From positions 29,040 through 93,039 of the forward strand of contig NZ_MKSU01000002.1 of assembly GCF_001897375.1 (NCBI RefSeq): a stretch of DNA of 64,000 nt, written 5' to 3'. Each line of letters starts with the position of its first letter. The first letter of the stretch is position 1. The stretch comes from Sphingomonas sp. 67-36 (GTDB lineage Bacteria > Pseudomonadota > Alphaproteobacteria > Sphingomonadales > Sphingomonadaceae). Made by a program: the position numbers and the translations under genes. Below are positions 12,906-34,221 of this stretch, one piece after another. The notes under the pieces are model-generated. The model saw only the letters and a program-made list of their open reading frames with translations, had not been told where the DNA came from and did no database searches.

Positions 12906-12919
12906 CCCGGACGCATGGG

Positions 12920-13654: not shown

Positions 13655-13722
13655 CGCTGGAATTTAGGAGCGGGCGGGCGCACTTCAAACACATAGGGCT
13701 GGCACGGCGGAGGGATCGGGAG

Positions 13723-14553: not shown

Positions 14554-14762
14554 GCTGCCGCGTACCGGCGAGAACACCGTGGCGCTGGCGCCATCGGCGA
14601 TTTCGGGACCGCCGCTGATCTCGTGCAGCAAACCCGCCGTAATCTACCGCCGGGCGGTCGCGAACAAATTTCGCTGATACCGAACGGCGTAGCTGCGTGG
14701 AGCAACGTTCGCATTCTTGCCGACTATTTCGACTTCACTTGACGACTGTAGGGCAAGCGCTC

Positions 14763-15518: not shown

Positions 15519-15591
15519 GTGGCGCAGGCTGCCGTTCGTAGTAGACAAAGGCAAGCATTCGGGTCGAGCCGAGTCTACGGGAGGGTCGCGC

Positions 15592-16428
15592 GTGGCGGGG
15601 ACTGAAGACGAGGGGAGGTTCTTCGATCACCGCATCAGCTTCGTGAATCACGCGGGCGAGCCTTCGTCACCGCTCGAGACGGTAGTCGCGATCGGGTTCT
15701 TCGATCCGACCATCGAGCTATTTCAGCCGTTCGCGACGGGCGTGTTCATCTCCGAAGTCGGACTCGTCTGCACTGCTAGGCACGTGCTCGAGTTCGAGCC
15801 CGCATTTCTGTCATCGATGCAGCATCTGTCGCCCCACAGCTTCGTCGCCGTGATGCAGCACTACGATGACCACACGATGGGCTATCGCGAGATCGTCGCG
15901 GCACATCCCCATCCGCGCTTCGACGTAGCGGTGGCGCGGCTGCAGCCGGTGGTCCATCTAAGGTCAGGAGAGAGCTTTTCGAACAAGGTGCTGGCGCTGA
16001 CCACCGACCGGTTCGAGATCGGCGACGCGGTCCACCAGTATTCGTATCCGGACCCGATCCTCTTCGATCAAGTCGACGGCCTGCAGCTCACGATGATTCC
16101 GCTGCTAACGGAAGGCAGGGTCATCGACTGGTTCCCGAAGGGCACGGGGAGCCTGTTCCCGTCGCCGTGCTACGTCATCGAAGGCTACATCGGAGCCGGC
16201 TCGAGCGGAGGTCCAGTGATGGATCGGACGGGCAGAGTGTTCGCCATAAGCTCGAGGGGCTGCACGGGCGGCGACTATTATTACGCCGTCCCGGTCCAGG
16301 CGATCGCCGACATCCGCATAACCTCCGTAATGCTCTCCTCGCCGCCCACAATCGAGGGGCCAACGGTGAAGGAGATGGTGTCGAGGGGCCTGATCTCCTT
16401 CGTCAAGCGTGTCGGCGAGGACGAATAA
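15592..16428 (+). CDS. trypsin-like (S1 family) serine protease with no signal peptide
   Basis: Catalytic triad context CTARHV (His), FDVAVARL (Asp), GAGSSGGPV (Ser). Likely GTG start at 15592 after GGGAGGG; the ORF track start is 15517. Confidence 0.7.
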   Translation: MAGTEDEGRFFDHRISFVNHAGEPSSPLETVVAIGFFDPTIELFQPFATGVFISEVGLVCTARHVLEFEPAFLSSMQHLSPHSFVAVMQHYDDHTMGYREIVAAHPHPRFDVAVARLQPVVHLRSGESFSNKVLALTTDRFEIGDAVHQYSYPDPILFDQVDGLQLTMIPLLTEGRVIDWFPKGTGSLFPSPCYVIEGYIGAGSSGGPVMDRTGRVFAISSRGCTGGDYYYAVPVQAIADIRITSVMLSSPPTIEGPTVKEMVSRGLISFVKRVGEDE

Positions 16429-16484
16429 CGCAACGGAGCGAGCGTCGGGACGCAATTCCGAGCGTAGGATGTTAGGGTGCGCAT

Positions 16485-17321
16485 ATGGCCGCCGAGGAGC
16501 ACAGGCTGCGCGTCGGGCGCTTGATCCGGGGAGATCGCAACGTCACCGATCTCGACCGGCTGTTCGCCGATCTCAGATTCGCGGATCCGGGGCGCCCGAC
16601 CGTCACCGAGATAGGAGACTTCGCCGCTCACCGCGAAGAGAGGAACAAGGGCATCGCGATGCGCCGCGTGGGCGACATCCAGATCAGCGCGCGCATTTGG
16701 GTGAGACAGCACTTTGGGATCGTCCCTTCGATCGAGGATACGAAGGCGGCGGGGTTCGCAAATCTGAAAATCGCCACCGACGAACAGATCCGAAGACGGT
16801 TGGGAACCAGCAGGCAGGTCGCCCGGTCGCAGTTCGTCCAGGGCCTCAAGCAGCTCGAGCTCGGGCGGTTGCCCAGTGCCAAGCAGAAGGCGGCCGTCAA
16901 TTATCTCGGAGGCAGTTTCGTCTGGCAGTTCGCTTTCGACGATGCGACGCTGGCGGGGGAATTCGCGGATGTTCTCATCGATTCTGGCGCCCTCGCCGCT
17001 TCGGATCGCGACGCCTTCCTCGGCATCGCGCCGTTCTTCGCTCTGCATGCGATCACGCTGATGCACGGCGCGCGCCTCGAACTTCCGGACGGGCAGTTCG
17101 CGCCCCTCCGGGCGGTCGTTCGTGACGAGACTGGGACGCTGCGGGTGGTGGCCGACGTGCCGGTTGAGAACTTCGGCAAGCCCATCGGCTGCATCGTGAC
17201 GATCTTCGAGACCGGGCTCGCTGCGGCAGATCATTGCGACGTCGATCTGCCCGGCGATCCGCACGCCACCATGTTCCCGTTGGAGATTGGCCGCGATGGG
17301 CGCCTCGTGGCGCTCGGATAG
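16485..17321 (+). CDS. hypothetical protein, co-directional with the protease (56 nt gap)
   Basis: 278 aa ORF with good third-position GC. Its stop TAG abuts the stop of the convergent SIR2 gene (TAGCTA at 17319-17324). Confidence 0.55.
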   Translation: MAAEEHRLRVGRLIRGDRNVTDLDRLFADLRFADPGRPTVTEIGDFAAHREERNKGIAMRRVGDIQISARIWVRQHFGIVPSIEDTKAAGFANLKIATDEQIRRRLGTSRQVARSQFVQGLKQLELGRLPSAKQKAAVNYLGGSFVWQFAFDDATLAGEFADVLIDSGALAASDRDAFLGIAPFFALHAITLMHGARLELPDGQFAPLRAVVRDETGTLRVVADVPVENFGKPIGCIVTIFETGLAAADHCDVDLPGDPHATMFPLEIGRDGRLVALG

Positions 17322-20300
17322 CTACCTGTTCTGTTCGCGCCGCGACAGCTCGGCCAGCCTAGGATCGTCCCGGACAGGTTCCTGCGCCTTGAGCGCGTCG
17401 AGCGTCCGGCGCGTCTCGTATGGCCACAGCCATGCGTCTTCGGGGAGAACCTTCCACAACAAGTCGAGGAGCTCTCGCGGATGCTGGGAGGCGATCCCTT
17501 CCTCCATGTCGATGAAGTGTCCCATTCGCACCGCCTGACCCGCGACCGCATCGAGCAGCGGTAGGATCGCATTGACGATCTCGACGAATCTGTCCGGCAT
17601 CGCCAGCGCCATGTCGACCAGCCTGCCTGACGTCTGAGGTGTCCGGACGGACCGCTGTCGTGGCCACACGCGTTCCAGGAAGGGAAGGATCCGGTCGCCC
17701 CATTTCGAGTCGGGCTCGTTCGACCACCGCTGCAGATACCACAGCATCTGGGTCCGCAGTTCGTCGTCGGCGTGAATCAGCACCTCGCGCAGTTCCACAT
17801 CGGGGATGAGCGCGTCGTCGTCGGTGGGGTCGTCGCTGCCGGCCCAGCCCGCGAGCAACATCCCGGCGAGCTTGTTGGCGTGGTCCCGGCGCTTCGCACC
17901 CGATCTAGCCAGCGCGATGAAGCCAGGCTTGAGGCGAGTGTAGAGCGGAAGCTGCGGCGTCCGGGCCGCCCAGAAATACCCTCCCCAGAAGGCCTGGGCG
18001 TCGGCATCGTCTCCGTCGGCGACAGTCAGCAGTCGTCTTTCGGTCCAGTCCGGGTCGATGAAGTAGAGCCAGTTCGAGTGCGGCGCGGTCATGGCGATCG
18101 CGTGCCGGCGCGCGTCGCCGGGGAGCGCGAGGAGCTGATCGAGCCGGGTCTTCCACTCGGCAGGCAGACCCTTATTCGAATTGAAGTCTGCCTTCGCCGG
18201 ATCCTTGAAGAGGGCATCGACCATGCGGCCGGCCGGCTGGTTGAGACCGTCATCGACCCATCCGGCGTCCGCTCGTCTGAACCGGTCCTTCGGCGGGTGG
18301 GCCGACAACGCGGCGACGAGCAAGTCCCACACCGCCTGGAACACGTCGGGAAGGTTGGTCAGTAGCCAAGTGGCGCGGTCGCAAATCCATTCGCTGACGG
18401 GATGCTGGAGCTCCGCGACTTTCTGCGGCCCAAGCCTGGCGAGCCGCGCCGCAATGGCGGTCAGCAGGCGTCGGTTGGGTTCGCCCTTGGCGGTTTCGTG
18501 CAGGAGAGCGGCCCATTCCCGCGCCGGAAACTCACCTTTGCGTGCGGCATCGGTCAGCACCGACAGCGCGAACGCGGGACGCCTTTCGGCCAGCCCGGAG
18601 AAGGGCCGGTGGTCGATGAAGGTCTCGAAGTCGCGGCCCGAGGCTTCGCGCACGGCGGCCAGCACCTCTCCGACCGGGAGCCCCTCCAGAGGAGTGGGGT
18701 CGGTGTCGGTCGGAATGCTGCGGACCTTGCCTACGTTCGGCTGGGCCGTGCGATCTGCGAACCTGGTCTCCCAATCGGGATTGTCTTTGCGCAGGTTGGT
18801 CATCTCGGCTTCCAGGCCGAAACCGAACTTCACTCCTTGAGCGCTCAGCCATTGAAGGCGGTTGAGGCGGTAGTGAGCCTTGATCCTGGCGAGATCGTCG
18901 CGGGGCTCTGGCCAGGGGAATGAGCCTGTCAGCAGACGGCGCTCGAGGTCCTGTCGACTCTTCGCGTCTAGGTCCGTCCATCTGTCGCGCAGTGCATACA
19001 GAAGGTCCCGTTCCTGCTGATCGGTCCAGAACGACTCGTCGTCGAGAGACAGAAACACCTCGGCGGCCTCGTGCGGATCGAGGATTGTGGGCTGGCCCGC
19101 CGCCCAGATCCGGAGGCGGTCGAAGACCGGATTCGAACCGGCCGGCCAGCGGCCGAACTCCTCCCTCGCCGCCGCGCGGTCGGCCTCTGCCAGGCGGACC
19201 ATCATGTTTACGAACGTCGCGAGGAGGCCGGTCAGTTGGAAACCGTCCTCGTCAGGCTGTTCTCCATCGTCCGCCCGCGTGGTGTCGAAGTAGATCCGGT
19301 CATGTCCGCCGATCTCGCGTTCGAGGACGATCGCATGCTCGATCTGGGCTCGAAGAAGCTGCAGCGCATAGCCGAGATGCTCCGGCGGGATGACGAGCGG
19401 CTCGTGCGGTCTCGGATACTTGACGTCCGGCCTGAGCACGTTCCCGATCGCCACTTCATCCTGGCCCGGAGGCAGTCGCGTGAGGATCGGCGGCTCGACG
19501 GTCAGCAGCGGACGATACATGTCGATCGTCGACCTGACCGCCGCCGTCGACCAGCCCGACTGGGCGACCACCGCCTCGATCTCGTAGCGCTGGCGATTGG
19601 GGTCTGGCGGGTCGGTGCGCCACGCGGCGATGAGCAGGCGCCATGCCTCTCGGATGGTCGCCGGAAAGCGATCCTGCTGCTGGCGCAGTGACCATTCGAG
19701 ATGCGACACGACGTCGGGATGCAGACCGTGCTGGTGCGCCGCCCACCAGATTGCGGCCGGCTGGTGGGCGACGCGGACCAGATACGCTCCAAGATGCCAG
19801 AGGCGGGTCGGCAGCTTCGAAGGGCGGCCGGCATCCGGACCCCGCAGCCGACCCGTCGCGTCCGGTGCCAGCCGCTCGCGATCGGCTTCGGTGGCGGCAA
19901 GCAGATCCCAAGCGTCCGCCGGAGCCTCGCGGCTGGAGAACCGGTCGTCGGGATCGGTCGTCGGTGGTGGTCGATCCGAGTCGAGACTTAGTAAATCGAA
20001 CGGATCGACGCGCTCGCTTCCTTCCACGTGAGGGTCTCGCGGGCCGGGAGGCGCGTAGCGCCTCTTCGGATCGAAGACGCAGAGCCATTCCGCCGGAAGA
20101 GGCGTTCCCTTGTCCGCCAGCCGCCGGGCGCCGTCGCGCGTCGCCGCAACGTGGGCGACGATACCCCGCTCGTGGGGCTGGAGGGCGCCCGGGCCGGCGG
20201 CCGCCATGGCGATGACCCTCTCGTGCCAGGCGTCCACGTCGCGCGCTCGGTCCGCCCATGCCCGCAAGGTCTCCCAGAGCGCAAAGTGGCCGTTGGCGCT

Positions 20301-21119
20301 GTCGTATGCGATGGGCTGCACGCCCTTATGCTTCCATTGCGCGGCGGCCTGGTCGATGCTGCCTGACTGGAAGGCGTAGAGGTCGTTCGGCCTGTCCTCC
20401 TCCCGGCTGAGCGCCTCCAGAAGATACTGGACCGGCGGATCGTCCGCCGAATACCCGACGAACACGATCTTGAAGCGTTGCAGCAGCGTCCGGATGTAGC
20501 GGGTTGCCCAGCCATCCGCGAGATACGCCCGGCCGAAGTCTGCGCTCGAAAGAACGAACTCGTTGTCGCAGGCGCGGCTATACTCGGCATCGACGCGGCC
20601 ATGGATGTGGATGACGCCCCTGAAGTCCGCCGGGCGCCGAGGATCGGGCAGATGCGGCGGATTGAACGAGCCGAGACCGGGGTCGCAGTCCTCGAACAGC
20701 CGGTCGAAGTTAGTGGTGATCAGCCTGACGACGTCCGCCGGATCGCGTGACAGGTCGAGCAAGGTGCGATGGGCGCCGAGCCCATGCCCGTGAGGAGGAA
20801 CCAGGGCCTTAGCGACGGCCTGGCGCACCTCTTCGGGGTAGAACTCCTGCTCTAGTAGGCCGAAGATCCGGTCGGTGGCGACGACGCCGGTGAGGCCGGT
20901 CGCCTTCTCGAAGTCCTGGCTCGCCGAGAACAATCGTCTGGCCGGGCTGTCGAGGGCGGAGCCCAGAGAGGACAGCACCCGGCCAGCAAGGCTGGGAAAA
21001 TTCGGCAGGTGTGCCTCAGCTTGCGAGACGCCCGCTCCGCAGAAGAACAGGACATGTCCGGCGTCGCGGGCGGTCAGCAGCTCGTCGGGTAGTTCCGGAC
21101 CGTCGGCAATAAACCTCAT
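17322..21119 (-). CDS. SIR2-like (SIR2_2 type) NADase-domain protein with a C-terminal helical region of about 950 aa; DSR-like single-gene defence candidate
   Basis: N-terminus LFFCGAGVSQ (Rossmann Gly loop), ITTNFDRLFE (Asn137), IHIHGR (His171/173), VFVGYSADDP. 1265 aa; no Walker A motif noticed by eye. Confidence 0.75.
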   Translation of the reverse strand: MRFIADGPELPDELLTARDAGHVLFFCGAGVSQAEAHLPNFPSLAGRVLSSLGSALDSPARRLFSASQDFEKATGLTGVVATDRIFGLLEQEFYPEEVRQAVAKALVPPHGHGLGAHRTLLDLSRDPADVVRLITTNFDRLFEDCDPGLGSFNPPHLPDPRRPADFRGVIHIHGRVDAEYSRACDNEFVLSSADFGRAYLADGWATRYIRTLLQRFKIVFVGYSADDPPVQYLLEALSREEDRPNDLYAFQSGSIDQAAAQWKHKGVQPIAYDSANGHFALWETLRAWADRARDVDAWHERVIAMAAAGPGALQPHERGIVAHVAATRDGARRLADKGTPLPAEWLCVFDPKRRYAPPGPRDPHVEGSERVDPFDLLSLDSDRPPPTTDPDDRFSSREAPADAWDLLAATEADRERLAPDATGRLRGPDAGRPSKLPTRLWHLGAYLVRVAHQPAAIWWAAHQHGLHPDVVSHLEWSLRQQQDRFPATIREAWRLLIAAWRTDPPDPNRQRYEIEAVVAQSGWSTAAVRSTIDMYRPLLTVEPPILTRLPPGQDEVAIGNVLRPDVKYPRPHEPLVIPPEHLGYALQLLRAQIEHAIVLEREIGGHDRIYFDTTRADDGEQPDEDGFQLTGLLATFVNMMVRLAEADRAAAREEFGRWPAGSNPVFDRLRIWAAGQPTILDPHEAAEVFLSLDDESFWTDQQERDLLYALRDRWTDLDAKSRQDLERRLLTGSFPWPEPRDDLARIKAHYRLNRLQWLSAQGVKFGFGLEAEMTNLRKDNPDWETRFADRTAQPNVGKVRSIPTDTDPTPLEGLPVGEVLAAVREASGRDFETFIDHRPFSGLAERRPAFALSVLTDAARKGEFPAREWAALLHETAKGEPNRRLLTAIAARLARLGPQKVAELQHPVSEWICDRATWLLTNLPDVFQAVWDLLVAALSAHPPKDRFRRADAGWVDDGLNQPAGRMVDALFKDPAKADFNSNKGLPAEWKTRLDQLLALPGDARRHAIAMTAPHSNWLYFIDPDWTERRLLTVADGDDADAQAFWGGYFWAARTPQLPLYTRLKPGFIALARSGAKRRDHANKLAGMLLAGWAGSDDPTDDDALIPDVELREVLIHADDELRTQMLWYLQRWSNEPDSKWGDRILPFLERVWPRQRSVRTPQTSGRLVDMALAMPDRFVEIVNAILPLLDAVAGQAVRMGHFIDMEEGIASQHPRELLDLLWKVLPEDAWLWPYETRRTLDALKAQEPVRDDPRLAELSRREQNR

Positions 21120-21962
21120 CGAAGTATACTAGGCGTCGAACGCGTGGTGCGGGAAGTCCGGCGTTTTAAAATATCGATTTCGGTGATGCCGATACGGTAT
21201 ATTGCGAGCAGGCCAGCAGCTCTTACTAAACGATGTCGGCATTCGCGTTAGGTCACTGGATAAACGCTGACCGTAAAAGGCCTACGCCAGACCCACCCGG
21301 CCTAAACGGAAAGCCCTACCTCGAATGTCTGCTTCGCGACTATCTCGTCCAAAAGCTGTCTGTCTGGAAGCGGCCCAGCTTCAGTCGTAACGCGACGCCG
21401 CGCGGACAAGCGTTGAACGTCAGCTTCCGACAAGAGCCGACGTTCAAGCTGTGGCATGGGAACGACGGGTTTGTCCCCAGATCCAGCCATTCGGATAATT
21501 GCGAAGCCGCCTGGCAGCTAAGCGCCCCAATAGCGGCCATTCAATCCGATGAGGCACGGCCCCGAAACTTGTCGTTTGTTCGTGATGCGCGGCGCGATGA
21601 CCGGGGCCGGCTGACTTTGGATCCGCGTCAACGCCTGGTTGCTAAGCGTACACTCTCCTGTCAGATCGATACATGATGACGGGGTTAATCGAAAAAGACG
21701 AGAAGGGCGAAACTGTCGTCAGACCAGTGCGGTGGTCAGAGTTTTCGCTCGCGGAGATCATCAAACCGTCATCTTTCATATGCTGGTGGCTGGATCGTTC
21801 ATCGCAGTTTATGCGGTCATCCTCATAAGCGCCCGTGAGACGGGGCTGTACACGCGGCTCCGAGTCTTCGGACGAGTTTTCACGACGTTCGAACACCCCC
21901 GCTGGGGGAGTGTTGGCGACGGATCAGCGCTGCGGACAAAATTCGCCCAGTATGCGACCCTG

Positions 21963-22199
21963 ATGCTCGGTCTTTTCTTATCGCTATGCCTGGCTAGTTG
22001 CTCGAAGCCGCCGCCGGATCGGCCCGGGGTGCAGCAGGATCAATTCAAGCCAGCCTATTGGCCGGTGTCCTTGCTCAAAGGCGTCTATCTCGGGGGTGTG
22101 CGATGTTCCTCTGCAACTTGCCGCGCGGGCGATGCGTCGCGGGCTTTCCTGAGGACGGCTGTTGGGTCGAGTTCTCCAAACGCGCTTCTGATCAGGTAA
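21963..22199 (+). CDS. small lipoprotein-like ORF, possibly broken
   Basis: MLGLFLSLCLASCSKPPPD carries a lipobox (L-A-S-C). A protein-like continuation sits in another frame (22103-22363), suggesting a frameshift. Confidence 0.25.
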   Translation: MLGLFLSLCLASCSKPPPDRPGVQQDQFKPAYWPVSLLKGVYLGGVRCSSATCRAGDASRAFLRTAVGSSSPNALLIR

Positions 22200-22428
22200 C
22201 CCGTATCATAAAGCAGCGGGATCGGCGTCTATATGGAGAGTATTGGTTTGAAGGAGCGGGTCGAGTGGCGTGGCAACCAGGCAATTTTGGTCATCTGGGG
22301 ACGTACAATTGGCACCTGAAAGCGGCCACTGGTGGAATCCGCGCTCTTCACGTGAGACCCTGACAAATCGTTCCGGATCGAAGTGGAACAAATGGCGATC
22401 ACGCAACACTTCGTGCTAGATCGCAACG

Positions 22429-25400
22429 ATGATCAGCGACGAACTTGTATCCCAGGATGACCTCGACCTCGAAGACGTGTTCGCCATGCTCGGCGCCTTC
22501 AGCGGTGGGGGTTATGGCGGGCTCGACCAAATGCTTGGCAAGCGGCCTGACATCGTCCGTCGGCTGCAGGCATTGTCGCCGCAGGCAGCCACCACCTTCG
22601 GCGCGCTGTTGACGGTTCCAGAGCTGCAGGCGAGCTCGGCGCGGATCGAGGCGATGGTCCATTTGGCCGTCGCCTATGCGCAGGGCACGCAAGCGCCGAG
22701 CAGCCGCCTCACGCACGACCTTTACCACCATGTCGGGTCGGTCGCCGGGCATCTCGAGGATCCGGCCGAGGATCTGATGATCGAGGCGGTGCGCGGTCCC
22801 TGGGGCAACTTCCGGGTAGTTGCCGGCCTTTGGGAGGGGGGCGGCTTCTTTTTGCAGCGCTTCCTCGATGTCATCGCCCATATGCCCGAAGGCGAACCGT
22901 TCGAAAGCGTCCAGCGGCCGGTCATCGCATTGCTCAAGCTGTCCGAAGAATTATGCGCGCGGGGCGGTCTCGCACGGCACGCACTTGGTGCCGAGATGCC
23001 GCTCAGGGCGGTCGCGAAGGAGCAGCTCGGCAGATGGATGCGGGGCCGATCATGGCTCTCCTTCTCCGACTCCGACCTCGATCGGCTGGGGATCGTTCCG
23101 GACGATCTTGCACCCTTCGTGTCGACCACCGCCGACAAACCAGTTTTGTTGTCGAGCGCGCTCGGCAACACGGTGCTCGAACGCCGCCCGCTGATCGCAG
23201 CCGGCGGCGAATATCATCTGGTCCTTCCGAACGCTGTTACCGCTGCGATTCGCTACTGGGTCATCGACGCGCTCACCCGCCTAGGCCGCCGCACCGACCT
23301 CTGTCGCGCGCTCAGCCTCAGCTACGCGCAGCTGTTCAACGAGATTCAGCTGCTCGGCGGCGCCTCGAGTGCGGTGCTTGACTTCGAGCCCGACGGTGGC
23401 GCGTTGGTCGCCGAAACCATGATCCGGTTCGACACCGGGCGGACCATCCACTTCCTGTTCTTTACCGACACGCTCGATGACATCGACGAGACGGGCCTGT
23501 CCGGCCTCAACCCGGCGGGCGTCACGCTTGGCGAGATGTTCGAGAAACGGATCGCGGCGCGCTATAGCCAGGCCGCAGGAGACCCCGATTACAAGGAAGG
23601 CATGACGCTGCTGGTCGGCTGCGGCATCGGCCGCGCATCTGCAGTCTCGTTCGGTGGTGACGATCATCCCGGTTGGCGGGTTGAGAGCTGTCCTGCCCAT
23701 GACCTGCTCGCGCTGAGCCTGCTCCACCGCTTCCGCACCGCCAATCTCTGGCGAATCCTGGAAGCGCGCGACCGCATCCGGTCGCTTGGCCTGCGCTTGC
23801 CCAACGTCAATGGCTTGCTAAACCTCGTCTCTTGGTCGCGATCGCTTGGCGGCCATCTCGTACCCCATGCCGAGGTTCCCGAGGCCTCGGCCGGCGGCGG
23901 TACTGTACTACTGATGGCCCAGAACGGTCTTCGCGAATTGCGGCAGGAGGCGGCGCTTGAAGCCGATTTCCGTGTCGGACGGTTCGTCGATGGCAATTGG
24001 CTGCGGCTTCGCCGCGACGCGCCCTCTGTGTTCGACGATGACCGCCGCGCTCCCGTCTATGGCAGCGAGGATCCGGGCCGGCATGACAAGCCGATGATCG
24101 CCTACGTCTCCGACCACCGGGACTGGTGGGCGGATGTTGAAAGTCCCGAGCAGGCCGGCGGCACCGTCGCCTATGAGCGGTGGCGGATGGCGAGCGTCTG
24201 GCTGTCGCGTGCCGCGCCGCGGCTGGAGCAGAAGCTAGATCTGCCCGCCGGTCCGATACTGTGGGACCTGATCTTCGAAGGCGATCTGAGCGATCGCCGT
24301 CTCGTGCACGATCGGCTGACCTATGACGCGGCACGGGCCGCGATCCGGGTTGAGATCGACCCTGCTCGATCGACGATCGTCACCCGCATCGGCAGCGACT
24401 TCGACAAGGCGCTGTTCCACCCGCAGAACATCGCCGAGCGCGCGCTAGTCGCAGCGCTAATTAGCGGCGCCGCCCAGCTCGCGGGAGAGGTCGATCCCGA
24501 CGCGATCACGGATGCGCTGCTCGGCGAGATCGTGACCAGTCCGGAAGCGCGGCACAGCCATGCCTTCGCGCAGCGCAGCTTTCGCGATCATGTCCGCACC
24601 CATGATGCGGGCAACCAGCTCATTCGCATCACGCGCGAGGATGATGCCTATACGCGGCTCAATCTCGGCTGGAGCGTCCGCGAACGGTCGGAGGGCGCGA
24701 CGATCCTCGGCAAGGCCGACTGTACCGCGTTCCTCAATGCGGTCGTCACGCATCTCCAGGACGAATTGCTCGAGATGCTACGAGGATATGACCGTCGCCA
24801 GATGCTCGAGCGCCTGCTGCGCAATCATGAGCTGGCTATCGACGACCGCGATCGGTGGACGCGGACGTCATCGGCGCTGATCGCGCTCCATGGCCGCACG
24901 CCTGAAACGCTCGCTCGCCTGATCAAGGCCGAGCAGAGCTTGAACGCCGTCTTCCAGGCGACTCGCATCCTCGTCGAGATGGCGATCTGCGAATGTCCGC
25001 TCGCCGGCGGCGCGCGACCGGGCCGGCTCGACATCTCGCTGTTGATGGCGAAGTCGACCCTCCTGTTCGAGATCGGCGGCTGGTCCGACGCAGTGCGCTG
25101 GGACGTGATGAAACCCGATATTCGGATCACGCCGCTCGGCGACATCCATGCCAATTTCGGCTTCTACGACGAGATCATCATCCCGCACGCCAACGCCACC
25201 GGTGAAGAGCGGATCGAACGAGCGATCACCGGCTATGCGAAGAACCTGGAGGAGCGACCGACGTCCGAAAGCGTGCAAGGCGAGCTCGAGCACGATTTTG
25301 CCGAAGCCTGGGTTGAACAGATCGGGGCAACGATCGACGAAGTCCGGCTGTTCGTCGATTCCGTCGAACAGATAGGCATCGAAGAGGATGCGCAGGTTAT

Positions 25401-26211
25401 CCGGGTGACGCGCGACCGCTTTAAGGAAATGCGGGTCGGCGATGCTTCGATCGGTGATGTGACGGCCGGGCGCATCCTCGCGACCCTCACGCTTACCTCG
25501 CGCGATAGTTGGCGCGACGTACCACAGGGCTTCGAGGAGCGGGATCGCCATCCGTGGCGCTTCCGGCGGCAATTGTCATTCCTGCGCCGCCCGATCCTCG
25601 ACTGGGATCCTGCCGGCGACATGCTGCTCGTCGCGCCCGGCATGCTGCGCGACAGCCTTGTCTATATGTATTCGCTCTACGAGAGCGGCGACTTCCCCGG
25701 CAGCCAGCTCACGCCCAAGATGGCGGCCTGGCGCGGGATCGCGAACGGGCGGCGTGGCACGATATTCGCTGAGGAAGTGGCCGAGGCTATGCGCGCCAAT
25801 GGATGGCACGCCGAGGTCGAGGTCAAGGTGACCAAGCTGCTTCGGCGCGGTTTCGACAAGGACTATGGCGATGTCGACGTGCTGGCGTGGCGTGACGACG
25901 GCCGCGTACTCGCGATCGAGTGCAAGGATGTCCAGTTCCGCAAGACGCTAGGCGAAATGGCGGAGCAGCTCAGCGATTTTCGCGGCGAGATTCGCTCGAA
26001 CGGCAAGCGCGACGAGCTGCGTAAGCATCTGGACCGATTGGAGGTCATTCGGAAGCACCTGCCGCTAGTCGCCACCTATGTTGGACGACCGTCGCTAGAT
26101 GCGATCGAGAGCCATCTCCTGTTCCGCAATCCAGTCCCGATGGAGTTCGCGCTCGCCAGGATGGCGGGCCAAGTCCAGGTGAGCAATTTTGGGGCGATAG
26201 CGTCGATCTAA
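22429..26211 (+). CDS. 1260 aa protein of unknown function with a C-terminal PD-(D/E)xK (restriction-endonuclease-fold) motif
   Basis: FAEEVAEAMRANGWHAEVEVKV...YGDVDVLAWRDDGRVLAIECKD (D1150, E1164, K1166; AAG for K1166 at 25924-25926). The N-terminal ~1100 aa show no motif I recognise. Confidence 0.7.
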   Translation: MISDELVSQDDLDLEDVFAMLGAFSGGGYGGLDQMLGKRPDIVRRLQALSPQAATTFGALLTVPELQASSARIEAMVHLAVAYAQGTQAPSSRLTHDLYHHVGSVAGHLEDPAEDLMIEAVRGPWGNFRVVAGLWEGGGFFLQRFLDVIAHMPEGEPFESVQRPVIALLKLSEELCARGGLARHALGAEMPLRAVAKEQLGRWMRGRSWLSFSDSDLDRLGIVPDDLAPFVSTTADKPVLLSSALGNTVLERRPLIAAGGEYHLVLPNAVTAAIRYWVIDALTRLGRRTDLCRALSLSYAQLFNEIQLLGGASSAVLDFEPDGGALVAETMIRFDTGRTIHFLFFTDTLDDIDETGLSGLNPAGVTLGEMFEKRIAARYSQAAGDPDYKEGMTLLVGCGIGRASAVSFGGDDHPGWRVESCPAHDLLALSLLHRFRTANLWRILEARDRIRSLGLRLPNVNGLLNLVSWSRSLGGHLVPHAEVPEASAGGGTVLLMAQNGLRELRQEAALEADFRVGRFVDGNWLRLRRDAPSVFDDDRRAPVYGSEDPGRHDKPMIAYVSDHRDWWADVESPEQAGGTVAYERWRMASVWLSRAAPRLEQKLDLPAGPILWDLIFEGDLSDRRLVHDRLTYDAARAAIRVEIDPARSTIVTRIGSDFDKALFHPQNIAERALVAALISGAAQLAGEVDPDAITDALLGEIVTSPEARHSHAFAQRSFRDHVRTHDAGNQLIRITREDDAYTRLNLGWSVRERSEGATILGKADCTAFLNAVVTHLQDELLEMLRGYDRRQMLERLLRNHELAIDDRDRWTRTSSALIALHGRTPETLARLIKAEQSLNAVFQATRILVEMAICECPLAGGARPGRLDISLLMAKSTLLFEIGGWSDAVRWDVMKPDIRITPLGDIHANFGFYDEIIIPHANATGEERIERAITGYAKNLEERPTSESVQGELEHDFAEAWVEQIGATIDEVRLFVDSVEQIGIEEDAQVIRVTRDRFKEMRVGDASIGDVTAGRILATLTLTSRDSWRDVPQGFEERDRHPWRFRRQLSFLRRPILDWDPAGDMLLVAPGMLRDSLVYMYSLYESGDFPGSQLTPKMAAWRGIANGRRGTIFAEEVAEAMRANGWHAEVEVKVTKLLRRGFDKDYGDVDVLAWRDDGRVLAIECKDVQFRKTLGEMAEQLSDFRGEIRSNGKRDELRKHLDRLEVIRKHLPLVATYVGRPSLDAIESHLLFRNPVPMEFALARMAGQVQVSNFGAIASI

Positions 26212-26250
26212 GATGCGCTGGGGATCCAATCCGTAGTCGAACCCCGCATC
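26212..26250 (+). terminator. hairpin immediately after the stop of the 1260 aa gene
   Basis: GATGCG(CT)GGGG ... CCCCGCATC followed by CCAGTTTC; the T-tract is weak. Confidence 0.3.
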
Positions 26251-26437
26251 CCAGTTTCGATGCAGCAAGCGGCCGCGTAGCGTCGTTGCCCAATCTTAGC
26301 GCTCCGCTTTCAACGCCACGCTGGACGCATTGCAGACGACCCCGGGTTCCGCGCACGATGCGGGCGAAATACCTTTCGGCGACGTTGGATCACGTCGCCA
26401 GAATTACGGGTGGATCGGCTTGGTCAAATCACACATT

Positions 26438-26542
26438 CTATTCTTCCGGCGGCCTGCGTCCGCGCAGCGAGGCGATAAGGGCGGCTCCGCCGAGCAGAAG
26501 CTGGGCGAAGGCGGTGAGAGTGGCAGGATCGAGGATCGTCAT
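26438..26542 (-). CDS. 34 aa hydrophobic peptide (MTILDPATLTAFAQLLLGGAALIASLRGRRPPEE)
   Basis: Below the ORF-track cutoff. ATG at 26542 has GGAG 8 nt upstream. One predicted TM helix plus a basic tail. Lies 82 nt downstream of the 26625-27677 gene on the same strand. Confidence 0.35.
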   Translation of the reverse strand: MTILDPATLTAFAQLLLGGAALIASLRGRRPPEE

Positions 26543-26624
26543 GACGAAAGCTCCGACTGTGAGGCCGAAGCTTCAGCATGGATTTCGTCACATCAACCTT
26601 GGCATTTGTGTCACAAAAGCTTGG

Positions 26625-27677
26625 CTATTGTGACGTTTGCGCCGCAGCTTTCTGCTCCCTGCGCAGCTTCGAAATGAAGTTCTGGATGGTGTCGACGCCG
26701 GGCGGATTGAGATTGCGCTGGCGGCTGAACTTGCGCGCGTATGCGGCAATGCTGGGTCCAATCTTGCCCGCTTCGAAATCCGCACGCACCTGCGCCATCC
26801 ACGGCTTTTTGCGCTTCGAGCGCGCGAGTCGGCTCTGTTCGGCGAAGCGGGTGCGACCCGCCTGCAGGAACTCGTAATTCTCGCGCCACAGCTCCCATTC
26901 GCGCGTGATCGCGCCGAGCATAATGGCGATGTGCGTGGCGCGCTCTGGATTGGCGCGCATCGCCTCGCACAGGCGCACGACACGGAAGGCATAGGCCGGA
27001 TCGCTTTCGGGGCCTGAGAGTTCGTCGATTTCTTCGAGGGTGTAGAAATCCCACTCACCGGTATCGATCGGATGCACGCCGGGCGCGGGCGCCGGCTCGG
27101 GCAGCATTTGCGGCCCGCCCTCGGCATCTTCGTCGATCGACACCACCGAGATCGCCTCGTCGAAGAACTTCTCCGCCGCTGCGCCGCCCTTGCGTAACGC
27201 ATCCGGCACGAGCGAAGCGGCATAGGCCTTGAGCTCGTCTTCACTCGCATCGTCTCCGAGACACATACGGGCGATGTCGAGCCCTTCCTCACCATCCATC
27301 GACACTGCCCATTCGAGCACATTGGCGAGATTGACGGCGCGATGCTCTGCTTCACCTTGCTCGAGCACCTCGCGGGCAATGGTTTCAAGCTCCTCGGGCG
27401 GCAACATTCTGAAGCGGATCGGCACGGCGCGGGTGATCGTCCAACTCCGCGGCTTCTTGCGGCCCTGCTTCGGAAAGGTGATGGTCCGCCGCTCGAGGAT
27501 CTGCTCCCCGAAACCCGCGAGCGGGTCGCCTCTAATGAAAATCTCTGGCTTGGAGACCGTTGCGCCGGGCGCCGCCTCCTCGGCCGCGTTCGCTACCGAT
27601 TCCCACCACGAGATACCATACGCGAGCATCGCGTCCCGGGCGCGTTCGAAGGCGTTGCGGGGATGATTGTCTGCCAT
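26625..27677 (-). CDS. hypothetical protein (350 aa), acidic middle region and basic C-terminus
   Basis: Start taken at MADNHPRN (27677). Coding-like codon bias. No motif recognised. Confidence 0.55.
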   Translation of the reverse strand: MADNHPRNAFERARDAMLAYGISWWESVANAAEEAAPGATVSKPEIFIRGDPLAGFGEQILERRTITFPKQGRKKPRSWTITRAVPIRFRMLPPEELETIAREVLEQGEAEHRAVNLANVLEWAVSMDGEEGLDIARMCLGDDASEDELKAYAASLVPDALRKGGAAAEKFFDEAISVVSIDEDAEGGPQMLPEPAPAPGVHPIDTGEWDFYTLEEIDELSGPESDPAYAFRVVRLCEAMRANPERATHIAIMLGAITREWELWRENYEFLQAGRTRFAEQSRLARSKRKKPWMAQVRADFEAGKIGPSIAAYARKFSRQRNLNPPGVDTIQNFISKLRREQKAAAQTSQ

Positions 27678-28035
27678 GGTATTAGCTGTCCGCTCCTGTG
27701 CGCCGGATGCCTCGCTCGCGGGCACCTGCACGATGGCGCGAGATTCTGGCCCGCGCGGACGATCCGCGTCAATTTCAGAATCTCATCCGCGTTTTCGGCT
27801 TTCGGAAGGGCCGGTTCCTGCATCGCATATCTGAAACCCGCCAGTCTGCAGACGGCCCAATCTCGGTTCATGCGGACCCGTGCTAACGTATGGCCGCTTT
27901 CGGGCGGTTCAACCTGGCGGCGAACGGCAGAATTGTCGGCACCACCGGCCAGCAGCGAGGTTTTTCTACATCAAAAGATGCTAGCATGAGAAGGCAAATT
28001 TTTTAGAATGGGCCAGCTTGTTTCCGAGGATATTC

Positions 28036-28773
28036 ATGGCGCTACCAAAGATTTTGGATCTTCTTCGCTTGGCGAGCGACCTCCGGGCCAGGGGCACGCA
28101 CGGATCGTTCACGGGTCCGCTGCGGAAGGCTGCCACGGCTCAATCGTGCCTCGCCGATCTTAGGCAGGCGGGGCATTGCTGCGAAGTCTTTCGAAGCACC
28201 GAACATCCAGGGCGCGAAGATGAGTATAGCGCAGCCCATCGAACCGTTCAGCAATCACTGTTAATGATGGCCGTGTCTTTGTATTCGCGGGCGACACACT
28301 CGACGGGCCAATATGGGGAGAGGGGTGCGATCCAAGTTTCGTCCCGTCTTCCTCCGCAGCTGCTGGCGGACCATGCGGCCGTCGTCGCGCTTCGCAATAA
28401 AGCTATGGCCCATGTCTACTTCGCAGAAGATCATGAGGACGGGGTCTGGCACGATCAGTTCCTGTTCGCGATACAAGATCTTGAGAAGGGATGGCTTCCC
28501 GGAAGCGCAACCCGAACGACACAAACGCGGCCGAAAACGCTGCTGCGGTTAGAGCGGCTCATTCCGGAAGCCGGCGGAATTTTGTCGCGGCAATTTCAAA
28601 AACACCTGCAAACCGCGATGAACGCATTCAACGCCGCAAGCGTCGATGTAAATCTTGCTGATTACACTGATAATGCCGAAGAATACTTTCCTAGCGAGAG
28701 TTTTGCGCGAGCAATTTTGCGAGATGCCGCGCCGAAAGCTGAGACCGTTATCCTCGGTGACAACTCAGCTTAG
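28036..28773 (+). CDS. HEPN-like protein (Rx5H motif), paralogue of 12920-13654
   Basis: LYSRATHSTGQYGERGA...HAAVVALRNKAMAH. GAGGA RBS 5 nt before the ATG at 28036. Lower GC than its surroundings. Confidence 0.55.
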   Translation: MALPKILDLLRLASDLRARGTHGSFTGPLRKAATAQSCLADLRQAGHCCEVFRSTEHPGREDEYSAAHRTVQQSLLMMAVSLYSRATHSTGQYGERGAIQVSSRLPPQLLADHAAVVALRNKAMAHVYFAEDHEDGVWHDQFLFAIQDLEKGWLPGSATRTTQTRPKTLLRLERLIPEAGGILSRQFQKHLQTAMNAFNAASVDVNLADYTDNAEEYFPSESFARAILRDAAPKAETVILGDNSA

Positions 28774-29152
28774 CTGGGTTGGGCGCTTCGATGGAGGTCG
28801 AGCCATAACACATGGGCGATGGTGTCCATCCCGTCCGCCGAGCTGCCATCTGGAACCGGCGATGCTGGCCAACCTGAATGACAGACAGCTATTGGGCTTC
28901 CAAAATGGACCCCTGGATGACGGTTAAGTCAGCGGCTCCTTTCACACAAGGATGCAGGGGGAACGGCAGCTATAGCTTTCCGCCATCCCAAGACCTGTCA
29001 GACAGCAAGCGGCAAGAGCTGACGCTCGACCTGCGGCAACGGAACGTCGGGTTTGTCCCAAAGCAGGTCGATAAGCCGGCCGCGACAGCTTCATGAATGA
29101 AGGGCAGGTTTCAGGGACCCGCTTTCGGCCGTCGAATGCGCCTATCGGGGCG

Positions 29153-30049
29153 CTACCCGTCGCGGTATCGCAAGGCGTCCACGAACAGCTTGAAGGCTGG
29201 CGAAGCAAACCGACGGCTCGGGTAGTACAGGTGATAGCCAGGAAGATCGGGCGTGGCACGGGAAAGCACACGTTCAAGCCGACCATCACCAAGATGATCC
29301 TTGATCTGATCGAGCGGAAGGTAGGCGAGCCCATGGCCGGCCAGAGCGGCGTCGCGAATGAGATCAATTGTGTTGAGTATAAGCGGACCATCGATGCGCA
29401 CGCGTGTTTCGCGTTTCCCGACTGCCAGGCGCCATCCGTTCAGCGTCCCGGAACTTGGCAAGCGGAGATTGATCGCTCGATGCTCGACGAGCTCTGATGG
29501 CGAGCTCGGGCGGCCATGCGCCTCGAAATACGATGGTGCGCCAACGATCGCCATCGGGACATCCGCGCTGATGCGGACGGCGATCATGTCCTTCGCGATC
29601 TCGCCGCCGAGCCTCACGCCCGCGTCGAACCGATCCGCCACGATATCGGCCATGCCATAGTCAATTGTTATCTCGACAGTGATGTCGGGATGATCTGGCA
29701 GAAGTCTGTCCATCGCCGGCAGCAGGACGATCTTGGCCGCGTGCTCGACCGTCGTAATGCTAATCGTGCCGGAGGGCTTGTCGCGCAGGTCGCTCAACGA
29801 CGCGATTGCGGCATCCATGTCGCGCATCATCGGTGCCAGTGTCGCAATTAAGCGATCACCCGCTTCTGTCGGTGCCACACTGCGGGTCGTGCGCGACAAC
29901 AACCGAAGACCTAGCCTGGCCTCCAGTTTCCGGACGATCTGGCTGAGCGACGACTGCGACATTCCGAGCCGAACAGCGGCGCGCGTGAAGCTGCGCTCTT
30001 CGGCGACCACGAGAAACGCAGTCATGTCGGCCATCTCGTCGCGGCGCAT
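29153..30049 (-). CDS. LysR-family transcriptional regulator
   Basis: MTAFLVVAEERSFTRAAVRLGMSQSSLSQIVRKLEARLGLRLLSRTTR HTH; divergent from the hydrolase gene. Confidence 0.9.
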   Translation of the reverse strand: MRRDEMADMTAFLVVAEERSFTRAAVRLGMSQSSLSQIVRKLEARLGLRLLSRTTRSVAPTEAGDRLIATLAPMMRDMDAAIASLSDLRDKPSGTISITTVEHAAKIVLLPAMDRLLPDHPDITVEITIDYGMADIVADRFDAGVRLGGEIAKDMIAVRISADVPMAIVGAPSYFEAHGRPSSPSELVEHRAINLRLPSSGTLNGWRLAVGKRETRVRIDGPLILNTIDLIRDAALAGHGLAYLPLDQIKDHLGDGRLERVLSRATPDLPGYHLYYPSRRFASPAFKLFVDALRYRDG

Positions 30050-30185
30050 TTATCACTCAGATGATAGGTTCATGCGGAATTGAGAGTCTAATCGCTGGAC
30101 CCGCTTTGGCCTAGATCTGTTTCATCAGCACTGGCTGCTGACCGCAATTTCCCGAAGTTCACGAACCATCTCGAGGAGAAGCGCC

Positions 30186-31244
30186 ATGAGCAACGAAGCA
30201 TACACACTCGCCGCGAGCGACACTGCGGTCGATGTCGGCGCAAACGACATCGACTACAAGAAGGCGCTCGGCGCCGACGACGGCGGCCTCGTCGATACCG
30301 CAGTCGAGGCGATCAAGGGCATGGCCGGAAAGGTCGTCGACAAGCTTGACCCGCTGACCGAGCAATATGCCGGCCTGTTCAAGACTGGCCTGCGCACACC
30401 TGTGATGCGCAAGCCGAGCGACTACGACATGGACTTCGAGGAGACCTGGTTCCCGTCGATGGACGGCGTACCGCTGGAAGCCTGGTTCATTCCCGCGCCC
30501 TCCGACAAACTGCTCATCATCAATCATCCGATGACCTGCAATCGATACGGCTTTCCGGGCCACCTACCCGAGTACAAGGCCTACTTTGGCGGCTTCGAGG
30601 TCAATTTCCTGCCGGAGCTCACGGCGCTCCATGACGCCGGCTACAACATCCTGACTTACGATCTTCGCAATTGCGGCCGCAGCGGGGAAGGCAATGGCGG
30701 GATCAGTGGGCTCGGATTGCTCGAATGCCGCGACGTCGTCGGCTCGGTGCGCCATGCTCGCGAGCATCCCGTCATGGGCAAGATGCGCACCAGCCTGTTC
30801 AGCCGTTGCATGGGTGGCAACTCGACAATCATAGCAATGGCCAAATGGCCTGACGAATTCCGTCACATCGAGGCGCTTGCTCTGCTCAACGTCGTTTCTG
30901 GCCCGACCTTCATCGAGCGCGGCGCGGAAAACCTCGGGCTCGACCCGGCCGCTGCTGCGAAGCGGCTCGATGAGCGCTGCCGGGAGACGACTGGATTCAG
31001 CGTCTTCGATTTTCGGCCGCAGGACTACGGCCACGGAGTCACCATTCCCACTTTCGTGGCGCAGTTGCGCCGCGACTTCCTGATCCATGGCGAGAAGGAC
31101 GGTCAGGAGATCTTCGACTCACTTGCCGCTGAAACGAAGGAGCTGCTGTGGATCGACCAGTCGAACCAGCGCTTTTACGCCTACAACCACTTCGGCCAGC
31201 ATCCCGAACGGCTGATCGAGTGGTTCGACAAGCACATGGCCTGA
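30186..31244 (+). CDS. alpha/beta-fold hydrolase-like protein (possible Cys nucleophile, dienelactone-hydrolase-like)
   Basis: Length and LFSRCMGGNS elbow-like motif; the fold assignment is tentative. Confidence 0.5.
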   Translation: MSNEAYTLAASDTAVDVGANDIDYKKALGADDGGLVDTAVEAIKGMAGKVVDKLDPLTEQYAGLFKTGLRTPVMRKPSDYDMDFEETWFPSMDGVPLEAWFIPAPSDKLLIINHPMTCNRYGFPGHLPEYKAYFGGFEVNFLPELTALHDAGYNILTYDLRNCGRSGEGNGGISGLGLLECRDVVGSVRHAREHPVMGKMRTSLFSRCMGGNSTIIAMAKWPDEFRHIEALALLNVVSGPTFIERGAENLGLDPAAAAKRLDERCRETTGFSVFDFRPQDYGHGVTIPTFVAQLRRDFLIHGEKDGQEIFDSLAAETKELLWIDQSNQRFYAYNHFGQHPERLIEWFDKHMA

Positions 31245-31479
31245 AGGGACCGCCGCTCGCCTGACGCAACACGTTTCAAACTGAGTAATCTGGGGGCGCT
31301 CTCCGAGCACTCCCAGATGCCGAGTGCGGGGCGACGAATGTAGGGCACCTTTTTGACAGCCGGATTTGTCGTTCGAATGGCTGCTGTGTTGGCGGAAGAC
31401 GCCGGACCCGGTTTCATAACCGGTGAACTGCTTGGTAGGGCTGATAGTCCGCACGACCAGCAGCGATCACGTATGGACG

Positions 31480-31971
31480 ATGGGCAGAAGCGAGAGCACC
31501 GATAGGCGGATGGAGGGAGATGAAGCGCGGATCATCGGCGAACTGGCAACGAGTCTCGGCGCCGGGGCGCAATATTTGCGTAGCGTGGCGGCTTCGCCGC
31601 CCGCCGACAAAGGCGCCTATCTGCTGCTGCTGCGCCTCGACGCACCGCTCGACCTGCGACTGCTTCACTCCGAGATCAGGCTGTGCTCCGGATATTACGT
31701 CTACGCCGGCAACGCCTATGGCTCCGGCGGGATCGGCGCACGTCTGCGGCGTCATCTTTGGCGCGACAAGCGCCTGCACCGGCATATCGACCGGTTGACC
31801 GGCATCGCCGACGCCATCCACGCCTTCGCCGTGCCTGACGGGCATGAATGCGTGATCGTCGCGCAGCTTCTGGCAACAGGGCGGTTCGACGTGCCTGTCC
31901 CGGGCTTTGGCAGCAGCGATTGTCGCCATTGCGAGGCGCATCTGCTCCGCCTGCGACCACGCGCATTCTGA
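31480..31971 (+). CDS. DUF123 / GIY-YIG-superfamily (Uri-like) protein
   Basis: GAYLLLLRL...SGYYVYAGNAYGSGGIGARLRRHLWRDKRLHRHIDRL. Start uncertain (31423, 31480 or 31510). Confidence 0.6.
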   Translation: MGRSESTDRRMEGDEARIIGELATSLGAGAQYLRSVAASPPADKGAYLLLLRLDAPLDLRLLHSEIRLCSGYYVYAGNAYGSGGIGARLRRHLWRDKRLHRHIDRLTGIADAIHAFAVPDGHECVIVAQLLATGRFDVPVPGFGSSDCRHCEAHLLRLRPRAF

Positions 31972-32026
31972 TGCGGCATGTCTTGCGTGACTCGCACTGG
32001 CATCTTCTGTTCAACAGAAATAGGAT

Positions 32027-32395
32027 TTGTTGGACATGGTCATGGGCAAACATCAATTTTTGAGCGGCGCTAAGAGCGGCAAGACCGCTCACACGAAATC
32101 GGGACGCAGCGTGCGAACGGCGAAAACGACGGAGCGTGTCACGGGTCATGCCGGCCAGGTCGAGGCAGTGATGGCGGCGGCCGAACGCTCCGGGTTGCTC
32201 GAGGAAAAGAGCGGCCGGATCGGCGGCCGGGTGAGCCCGGCGCTCGTCAAGCGCGCCAAGGCGCTGACCGGCATCGATACCGACACCGATCTCATCGAAT
32301 TTGCGCTGGCCAACGTCGCGCTAGAGGATGGGTTCGCCGAGTGCTTCAAGGCCGCGCGCGGCAAGGTGGATCCGGACATCCAGCTCGGCTTCTGA
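32027..32395 (+). CDS. putative type II antitoxin (VapB-like, ribbon-helix type C-terminal half)
   Basis: RVSPALVKRAKALTGIDTDTDLIEFALANVALED. Its stop is 2 nt before the GTG of the next ORF. Confidence 0.5.
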   Translation: MLDMVMGKHQFLSGAKSGKTAHTKSGRSVRTAKTTERVTGHAGQVEAVMAAAERSGLLEEKSGRIGGRVSPALVKRAKALTGIDTDTDLIEFALANVALEDGFAECFKAARGKVDPDIQLGF

Positions 32396-32397
32396 AG

Positions 32398-32874
32398 GTG
32401 GCGGCGTTCGATATCGGCGCGGCACTGCGCTGGTCGCGCTTCGATCCCGGTCGCACACTGCAACGTCGGGCGGACGGAGAGTTACCCTCCGCCAGCGCGG
32501 AAGAGTTGGCCGGGCAACCTCTGCTGCTCGCCACCTGCGTTTATATCGATCAACTCCAGGGCCGCGCGCCGTCGCTGGTCGAGGGGCTGATCGACAAGCG
32601 ACAGGTCAATCATTCGACGGTCGCGATTCAGGAACTCAGCCACACAATCGGCGTACTCGATCCGGCCGACAAGCGGACGCCGAATGTCATCACCGTCATC
32701 CGTGATCAGATCGAGGCGATGCCCGAGCACCGGACCTTCGCGCCCGATGCCGATGTGCTCGGCCGCGCCGCCTTGCTGTCGGGCACCCCTTCGAAACGCC
32801 TGAAGAAGCCGGATGCAATTCTGTCCAGTATGCCGTGGGCGTCTCAAAGCTCGATGTCCCGTGAACGCGCGTGA
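32398..32874 (+). pseudogene. PIN-like (VapC-type) toxin remnant: active-site Asp apparently replaced and C-terminus truncated
   Basis: LLATCVYIDQLQGRAP...HSTVAIQELSHTIG resembles the N-terminal half of a PIN family that, from memory, reads LLDTCVYIDQLQG. The expected C-terminal ..LT.N..DF.. part is absent, and the 3' end overlaps the convergent phd-like gene. Confidence 0.35.
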
Positions 32875-33092
32875 TTGCGTTCGAACTCACCGCCGGGAAA
32901 GCTCCGCAGGTAGGAGACGAAGCTAGCCCTTTCGCGCCGGATCGTCCGATGCGCGATTTCGGCGGCTTCGAGCGACACGAGTGCGGCGACGGGCTTGCCG
33001 TGGCGGGTAATCGTCACGAACTCGCCCCTGATGGCTTTGTCAACAAGATGGGAAAGCCCCGCCTTCGCATCCTTGAGACCGATGGTCAGCAT
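32844..33092 (-). CDS. Phd/YefM-family antitoxin with no cognate toxin
   Basis: MLTIGLKDAKAGLSHLVDKAIRGEFVTITRHGKPVAALVSLEAAE. No credible toxin ORF lies downstream on the minus strand. Confidence 0.7.
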   Translation of the reverse strand: MLTIGLKDAKAGLSHLVDKAIRGEFVTITRHGKPVAALVSLEAAEIAHRTIRRERASFVSYLRSFPGGEFERNHARSRDIEL

Positions 33093-33201
33093 CTGCTGCT
33101 CCGTATTGTGGTCACTTATGACCGCAATGCCGATCAGTGCTCCAAATACAAGTAGCGCGTGATCGGTCTCATGCTGCCTGCATCGGAAAAAGCACCTGTG
33201 A

Positions 33202-33816: not shown

Positions 33817-34221
33817 TCCCGATCTCGTCGAAGCGCGGACCGACGTTGCGATCAAAGCGCAAGCTGGAATTGGCAGCCGCCTCAAGAGCACCGATTTAGC
33901 TGCTAGGGCCGAGGGGCAAGCGGGCCTCGATCGTGGGCGCCGCAATCGCGAAGTCGATCAGGCCCGTGAGCGCGAGAAGCTCGACCGGAAGGTCGAGGCA
34001 GCGGAGAGAACTACGACCGGGAAATGAAGACGTGGCGGCCGGACGAAACACTGTGCACGCATCGGGCAAGGCGTTTCCCCGGTGGACTGATTTCGACGCC
34101 AACGTACCAAGCTGTACGCCAGCATGAGTAACCTGCGTGGTCGCCCGGTGGTCGCCCGCGCAAAATCAAGGCAATGAGCGCGTGGCCCGCGCCCACTAAG
34201 CTATTGATTTTCTTAGAAAAT

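Follow-up and report, generated by a model that had tools for sequence, protein, structure and literature searches.

What does the large protein encoded at positions 22429..26211 (+) of this stretch do, and does it act alone or together with the gene beside it? The stretch, which we call the window, comprises 64,000 nucleotides of Sphingomonas sp. 67-36 DNA (contig NZ_MKSU01000002.1, positions 29,040 to 93,039), and the open reading frame (ORF) in question runs from an ATG through 1260 codons to a stop codon. The original prediction, made from the letters of the sequence, had read this ORF and its C-terminal sequence correctly, as both are found in the translation, and had put it forward as the strongest candidate for an undescribed system, having found no named one to match. 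It does have a name: it is a homologue of Upx, by homology a single-gene anti-phage sensor-nuclease, a family with PADLOC, NCBIfam and Pfam models, a solved structure (9wuf) and two mechanism papers from 2026. The system is already known, and the window locus is an ordinary one. The discovery of Upx is reportedly due to Gao et al. 2020 (Science), a credit that we take from the reference lists of later papers. Our joint reading, which we consider very probable, is that the window encodes an intact, stand-alone Upx, a putative sensor of a phage protein that releases its C-terminal nuclease upon sensing, and that the Dsr1 homologue next to it is a separate system.

The PADLOC Upx model matches the window protein at E = 2.5e-215 over model positions 40-1255 of 1271, and NCBIfam NF042954 ("anti-phage protein Upx", Upx_antiphage) matches it at E = 5.2e-248 over positions 15-1223 of 1240. 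A database protein of identical sequence (P0001, from a 176 kb contig in ENA) carries Pfam family PF28173, "Upx-like", as do 120 of 120 homologues among the matches listed. When the PDB was searched by sequence, the sole match was chain A of the cryo-electron microscopy structure of Salmonella enterica Upx (9wuf_A, E = 1.7e-140); the phmmer alignment is collinear, with window residues 56-1246 set against residues 55-1256 of 9wuf, and identity to the Salmonella protein (SeUpx) is ~29% across 1181 aligned positions.

Structure prediction agrees with these matches. The AlphaFold 2 (AF2) model of the window protein (predicted local distance difference test score, pLDDT, 89.8; predicted template modelling score, pTM, 0.88) reproduces the three-domain fold of the cryo-electron microscopy structure, consisting of an N-terminal domain (NTD), a middle domain (MD) and a C-terminal domain (CTD). 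In a Foldseek search of the PDB with the full model, 9wuf was found at E = 3.4e-70 with template modelling (TM) scores of 0.83/0.82 over 1238 columns, and there was no other match at E<=1e-3. From the alignment to 9wuf and the published domain limits (PMC13099982), the NTD covers residues 1-514 (22429..23970, +; SeUpx 1-515), where it forms part of the putative sensor, and the MD residues 515-713 (23971..24567, +; SeUpx 516-714). The CTD, residues 714-1260 (24568..26208, +), was placed by alignment to 9wuf 966-1256. A Pfam scan of the whole protein found no ATPase, helicase, methylase or repeat domain, just as had been claimed, and the architecture of a large sensor region followed by a C-terminal PD-(D/E)xK nuclease, recovered here through Upx homology, bears out the idea of an autonomous single-gene sensor-nuclease.

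The family is large and of uniform length: an exhaustive search gave 2246 cluster representatives at E<=1e-3, of which 783 also pass E<=1e-30, and almost all have a length of ~1250 residues. For conservation we aligned 61 diverse Upx sequences, the window protein among them, reaching down to 26% identity. Among the other 60 sequences, 94 columns show conservation of 90% or more, and in every one of them the window protein has the conserved residue; because none of these has been lost, it looks intact and, to judge from its residues, functional.

SeUpx (Salmonella enterica NCTC6026, SQI81149.1, structure 9wuf) is 1272 residues long, against 1260 for the window protein. The two share the NTD-MD-CTD fold, the D/E/K triad, the single-gene organization and the lack of a nucleoside triphosphatase (NTPase); they differ in host, which is a sphingomonad-type alphaproteobacterium in one case and an enterobacterium in the other, and in two of the five published NTD residues, which are replaced in the window protein. 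Two further relatives, HpUpx and PbUpx, are activated by terminase at ~16% identity to SeUpx (PMC13601566), and we infer their link to the window protein from family membership. Avs1-3, which are STAND NTPases, resemble Upx in that a single polypeptide combines a large sensor that recognises the phage's large terminase with the nuclease effector it activates, but in the window protein Pfam detected neither a STAND nor any other NTPase domain, and apo Upx is monomeric according to the literature, in contrast to Avs. The window protein was also considered as an Avs member and rejected as such, the Foldseek alignment to Avs3 (8dgc_B) being noise (E = 0.9, TM 0.08).

Nuclease core and N-terminal domain

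Within the CTD, the PD-(D/E)xK core spans approximately residues 1110-1260 (25756-26208, +). Its catalytic residues D1150 (25876-25878), E1164 (25918-25920) and K1166 (25924-25926), which lie exactly where the original prediction had put them and together occupy 25876..25926 (+), correspond to D1161, E1176 and K1178 of SeUpx. None of the three varies in any of the 61 aligned homologues, and neither does C1165 between the last two; further invariant C-terminal positions are G1147, G1186, D1195, H1200 and R1203. The helix glutamates E1115, E1116 and E1119, which the original prediction had taken for the leading "E" of the motif, fared differently and show no conservation in the family alignment. 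In SeUpx, the E1176A and E1176A/K1178A mutations abolished both defence and terminase-induced toxicity (PMC13099982, PMC13601566).

A profile of the nuclease core matched 9wuf at E = 5.8e-33 and otherwise gave marginal matches to DUF1887 and XisH (E = 0.06-0.16). Both of these we take to be proteins of the restriction-endonuclease fold. The earlier description of the domain as a Mrr/NERD-like PD-(D/E)xK nuclease is right in its second half, and the Mrr/NERD label gained no support: Pfam Mrr_cat and NERD gave no match, either with the whole protein at E<=0.1 or with the last 161 residues at E<=10. By homology and residue conservation, the CTD is a predicted divergent PD-(D/E)xK nuclease and not a specifically Mrr/NERD-like one, in agreement with the literature. 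Downstream of the ExK strand, at residues 1180-1203 (25966-26037), there is a Q1180 in 58 of the 61 sequences and an aromatic residue at 1184 in all 61. This Q-x-x-x-F/Y spacing at residues 1180-1184 presumably recalls the QxxxY motif of RecB/Cas4-type exonucleases.

Modelled on its own, the NTD gave a pLDDT of 90.3, and Foldseek matched it to 9wuf alone (TMq 0.85). Its most conserved feature in the 61-sequence alignment is an acidic motif, E110-D111-P112-x-E114-D115 ... N127-x-R129 ... G133-x-W135-E136 (22756..22836, +), in which E114 and G133 are present in all 61 sequences, D111 in 60, E110 in 57, E136 in 56 and D115 in 55, with P112 and W135 likewise invariant or nearly so. In the AF2 model this motif sits on a helix-strand-strand-helix unit, where it takes in a helix end, a beta-hairpin and the first part of the helix that follows. 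The SeUpx structure paper makes no mention of the residues of this motif (PMC13099982). The NTD residues that were published for SeUpx, D122, D127, R129, E147 and D173, become R122, N127, R129, D147 and E173 in the window protein. In the 61-sequence alignment, position 122 shows no conservation, position 127 carries N in 40 sequences and D in only 8, and position 147 is N or D. Because positions 122 and 127 are not conserved, the published site does not appear to be a family-wide feature.

We tentatively suggest, from this pattern of conservation, that the functional centre of the Upx NTD might instead be the acidic cluster E110/D111/E114/D115/N127/R129/E136 and not the published D122/D127/R129/E147/D173 site. 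Should this be true, the model of Upx as a dual nuclease would need revision, and the cluster would serve either as a metal site of a different kind or as the switch by which terminase binding is coupled to release of the nuclease. The family-wide comparison thereby questions the generality of the published N-terminal second-nuclease site and highlights a nearly invariant acidic motif. Two further readings of the NTD were tried and rejected: an internal duplication, in which it would have degenerated from the CTD nuclease (hhalign probability 0.2% for the NTD region against the CTD core), and a nuclease or other known fold, since a Foldseek match to FokI, the one found besides 9wuf, was non-significant (E = 0.019, probability 0.15, TM 0.14).

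Autonomy and the Dsr1 neighbour

The divergent SIR2-like gene that had been noted beside Upx lies at 17322..21119 (-), with a gap of 1309 bp between the two genes. It encodes a 1265-residue homologue of Dsr1 (defence-associated sirtuin 1) with an N-terminal SIR2 domain, identified by PADLOC (Dsr1, E = 7.8e-91), NCBIfam and Pfam (SIR2_2, E = 7.1e-18). The NCBIfam Dsr1 score of 409 bits is under that model's cut-off of 1400, Dsr1 models being nevertheless the best matches, and the agreement is strong mainly across the first ~350 residues. The SIR2 motifs GAGVS, TTNFD and HIHG are found at residues 28, 135 and 171, so that the N-terminal SIR2 domain with its catalytic N and H motifs, the long C-terminal region and the length of ~1250 residues all agree with Dsr1. 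No solved structure for this homologue was detectable by sequence. DSR1 is a documented single-protein, NAD+-depleting defence system.

To judge how tightly the two genes are associated, we used 86 other Upx loci, drawn from a metagenome scan with an alignment query, which together provide 737 kb of flanking sequence; in 35 of them the upstream flank is 5 kb or longer. A tblastn search of these 86 loci, for which the queries were the window Dsr1 and five more ORFs from its neighbourhood, gave zero matches. The 105 nearest neighbour ORFs, classified with Pfam and PADLOC, are heterogeneous, no family recurring beyond a few times; neighbours of Upx homologues include integrases, resolvases, type II restriction-modification genes, Shedu, Lamassu, AbiEi, Gabija GajB and defence reverse transcriptases. 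Even the relatives nearest in sequence, a 90%-identical Upx in a metagenome-assembled genome of Allosphingosinicella and a 72%-identical one in Acetobacter persici, lie in integrase/resolvase islands that contain no SIR2 gene. At the DNA level, blastn homology to the Allosphingosinicella locus covers 22361-26216 (87.5% identity) and that to the Acetobacter locus 22377-26198 (70% identity), with unrelated flanks in both cases; what is shared with the closest loci is the Upx gene and ~50-70 bp upstream of it only. Since the neighbours vary and the homology is gene-sized, Upx moves as a one-gene cassette, and the adjacency of Dsr1 is particular to this island. The SIR2-paired, two-effector version of the original prediction therefore finds no support: no Dsr1 homologue accompanies Upx at the 86 other loci, and the neighbour itself belongs to a known stand-alone system. 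Judged by these comparisons, Upx and the predicted Dsr1 protein are independent neighbours within one island.

The conserved DNA upstream of Upx amounts to a 5′ leader or promoter region of ~68 bp (22361..22428, +), defined by blastn homology with the Allosphingosinicella and Acetobacter loci. Near the ATG, a TGCTAGAT stretch in this leader resembles an extended -10 element, and a Shine-Dalgarno sequence is not obvious; the leader may be a mobile promoter or reflect a leaderless start. Downstream, the hairpin that had been described 3′ of the stop codon did not stand up to scrutiny, its fold being at the level of shuffled sequence (z = 0.33; 123 of 200 shuffles were as good). A scan for a terminator-like site after the Upx stop codon likewise found none, and a scan with Rfam gave no match near the gene. 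The spacer between the two genes (21120-22428) contains three weak ORFs, for which Pfam, PADLOC and NCBIfam were empty save for one chance-level match, and these ORFs have neither a codon-position bias in GC content nor homologues beside other Upx genes. Within the spacer, a stretch of ~110 bp (21371-21483) shares ~85% identity with plasmid DNA of Sphingobium and Sphingomonas that carries no annotation, and it may be a small repeat element.

In a collection of viral contigs, Upx gave three matches only. One of these is full-length, at 7887-11687 of a 32.6 kb contig predicted to be viral (L087; IMG/VR UViG_2878102749_000001), where it adjoins an AbiGi-like gene, a weak HEPN match and a RHS-repeat protein; these surroundings resemble a defence island more than they do a phage.

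Proposed mechanism and its alternatives

Two studies address how SeUpx, which defends against PhiV-1, is triggered. Evans et al. 2026 identified the large terminase as sole activator in a genome-wide screen and found gp16 to be non-activating; three Upx homologues, with identity down to 16%, all responded to diverse terminase ATPase domains, and the authors proposed from AlphaFold 3 models that an unfolded terminase ATPase core is bound through beta-augmentation (PMC13601566). Zhou et al. 2026 described SeUpx as a 3′-5′ single-stranded DNA exonuclease with a second nuclease in the NTD, activated by gp16 and conferring direct immunity (PMC13099982). Because the response to terminase generalises across the Upx family, we favour terminase sensing over gp16, and by analogy such sensing probably applies to the window Upx. 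In the window protein, then, the ~1100-residue N-terminal and middle region would sense a protein that the phage produces in the course of infection; the large terminase ATPase domain, presumably bound in a partly unfolded state, is the candidate with the best support. Binding of the trigger would release the C-terminal Mg2+-dependent nuclease, and the freed nuclease would degrade DNA (3′-5′ on single-stranded DNA in vitro, in the case of SeUpx) so that phage replication stops. Dsr1 next door would act as a separate NAD+-depleting defence protein.

Several points weigh against this reading. The NF042954 score of the window Upx, 825.6 bits, falls below the equivalog cut-off of 1900, for which reason we regard this protein as a divergent member of the family and not as a close SeUpx orthologue; it is also because this cut-off is missed that public homologues carry the label "hypothetical protein". 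The trigger is itself disputed, gp16 (PMC13099982) versus the large terminase (PMC13601566), as is the outcome, with direct immunity on one side and toxicity or abortive infection on the other. Finally, the proposed binding of terminase derives from AlphaFold 3 models and not from a solved complex (PMC13601566).

Part of this dispute concerns the account of Zhou et al. 2026, in which the NTD is an auto-inhibited 3′-5′ single-stranded DNA exonuclease that a gp16-type ejection protein unlocks and in which both nucleases are needed. It draws on published SeUpx biochemistry and mutants (PMC13099982); the window NTD adopts the same fold as that of 9wuf and keeps R129, and with D147 and E173 it retains acidic residues at two positions that are E and D, respectively, in SeUpx. 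The two other aspartates of the site, however, D122 and D127, are R122 and N127 in the window and non-conserved in the family, and neither hhalign nor Foldseek shows any nuclease likeness for the NTD. Given also that gp16 was non-activating, and terminase the sole activator, in the screen of Evans et al. (PMC13601566), we regard a dual-nuclease mechanism as unlikely for the window protein.

Far less probable still is that Upx and the divergent SIR2 protein act cooperatively as a single two-effector system under a common regulatory region. The genes are indeed adjacent and divergent, 1309 bp apart in the same island, and both encode defence proteins, but each is a complete homologue of a system that works alone, Dsr1 was not detected beside Upx at 86 loci, the 90%- and 72%-identical Upx genes have no SIR2 companion, and DNA homology stops ~70 bp upstream of Upx, which places the 1.3 kb spacer outside any shared unit. 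We give equally little credence to a role other than defence, such as an island-maintenance or addiction nuclease or a DNA repair enzyme, with a likeness to Upx in fold only. Such a role would suit an island in which toxin-antitoxin genes predominate (HipA twice, RES, Phd) and a protein that scores under the NCBIfam equivalog cut-off; yet the homology spans the whole length rather than the fold alone, many defence genes are found among the neighbours of family members, and homologues at 16% identity are still anti-phage and terminase-triggered, while the window protein is closer than these to SeUpx (29%). An intact, stand-alone Upx beside a separate Dsr1 remains the reading that we prefer. As a lead for discovery, the locus has no value, because standard defence-annotation models already name the gene Upx; its modest worth is as a data point, an intact and divergent Upx from an alphaproteobacterium that sits, as a cassette the size of one gene, in a tRNA-Gly island beside Dsr1.

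The surrounding island

Upx and Dsr1 both lie in a genomic island of ~29.3 kb (4904..34296, no strand assigned) that is delimited by a direct repeat, a tRNA gene and a shift in GC content. The tRNA-Gly(GCC) gene at 34222-34296 (-) forms one border, and a 45 bp exact direct repeat (4904-4948 = 34222-34266) copies the 3′ half of this gene; GC content is ~0.62 within the island and ~0.69 outside. Besides Dsr1 and Upx, the island contains an HTH-HipA pair, a second HipA, a RES toxin, a trypsin-like protease, a LysR regulator, DUF123, a Phd antitoxin and DUF1353. It is rich in toxin-antitoxin genes: the HTH and HipA pair is at 5294-6927, the second HipA at 9344-10645, the RES-domain toxin at 13645-14553 and the Phd/YefM antitoxin at 32844-33242. 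Among the 71 island ORFs of at least 110 amino acids, none was recognised as an integrase or recombinase, and the island may accordingly be an immobilised remnant.

In PADLOC, the trypsin-like protease (15517-16428) weakly matches the protease portion of RT-Protease_XI (E = 7e-8). Next comes an ORF of 278 amino acids that has no matches (16485-17321) and is convergent with the Dsr1 gene, the 3′ ends of the two abutting. The protease gene and this ORF could constitute another defence module. Elsewhere in the window, at 52223-52300 (-), Rfam matched the mmgR/suhB small RNA with 51.3 bits, against a gathering score of 41. We take this to be an alphaproteobacterial small RNA.

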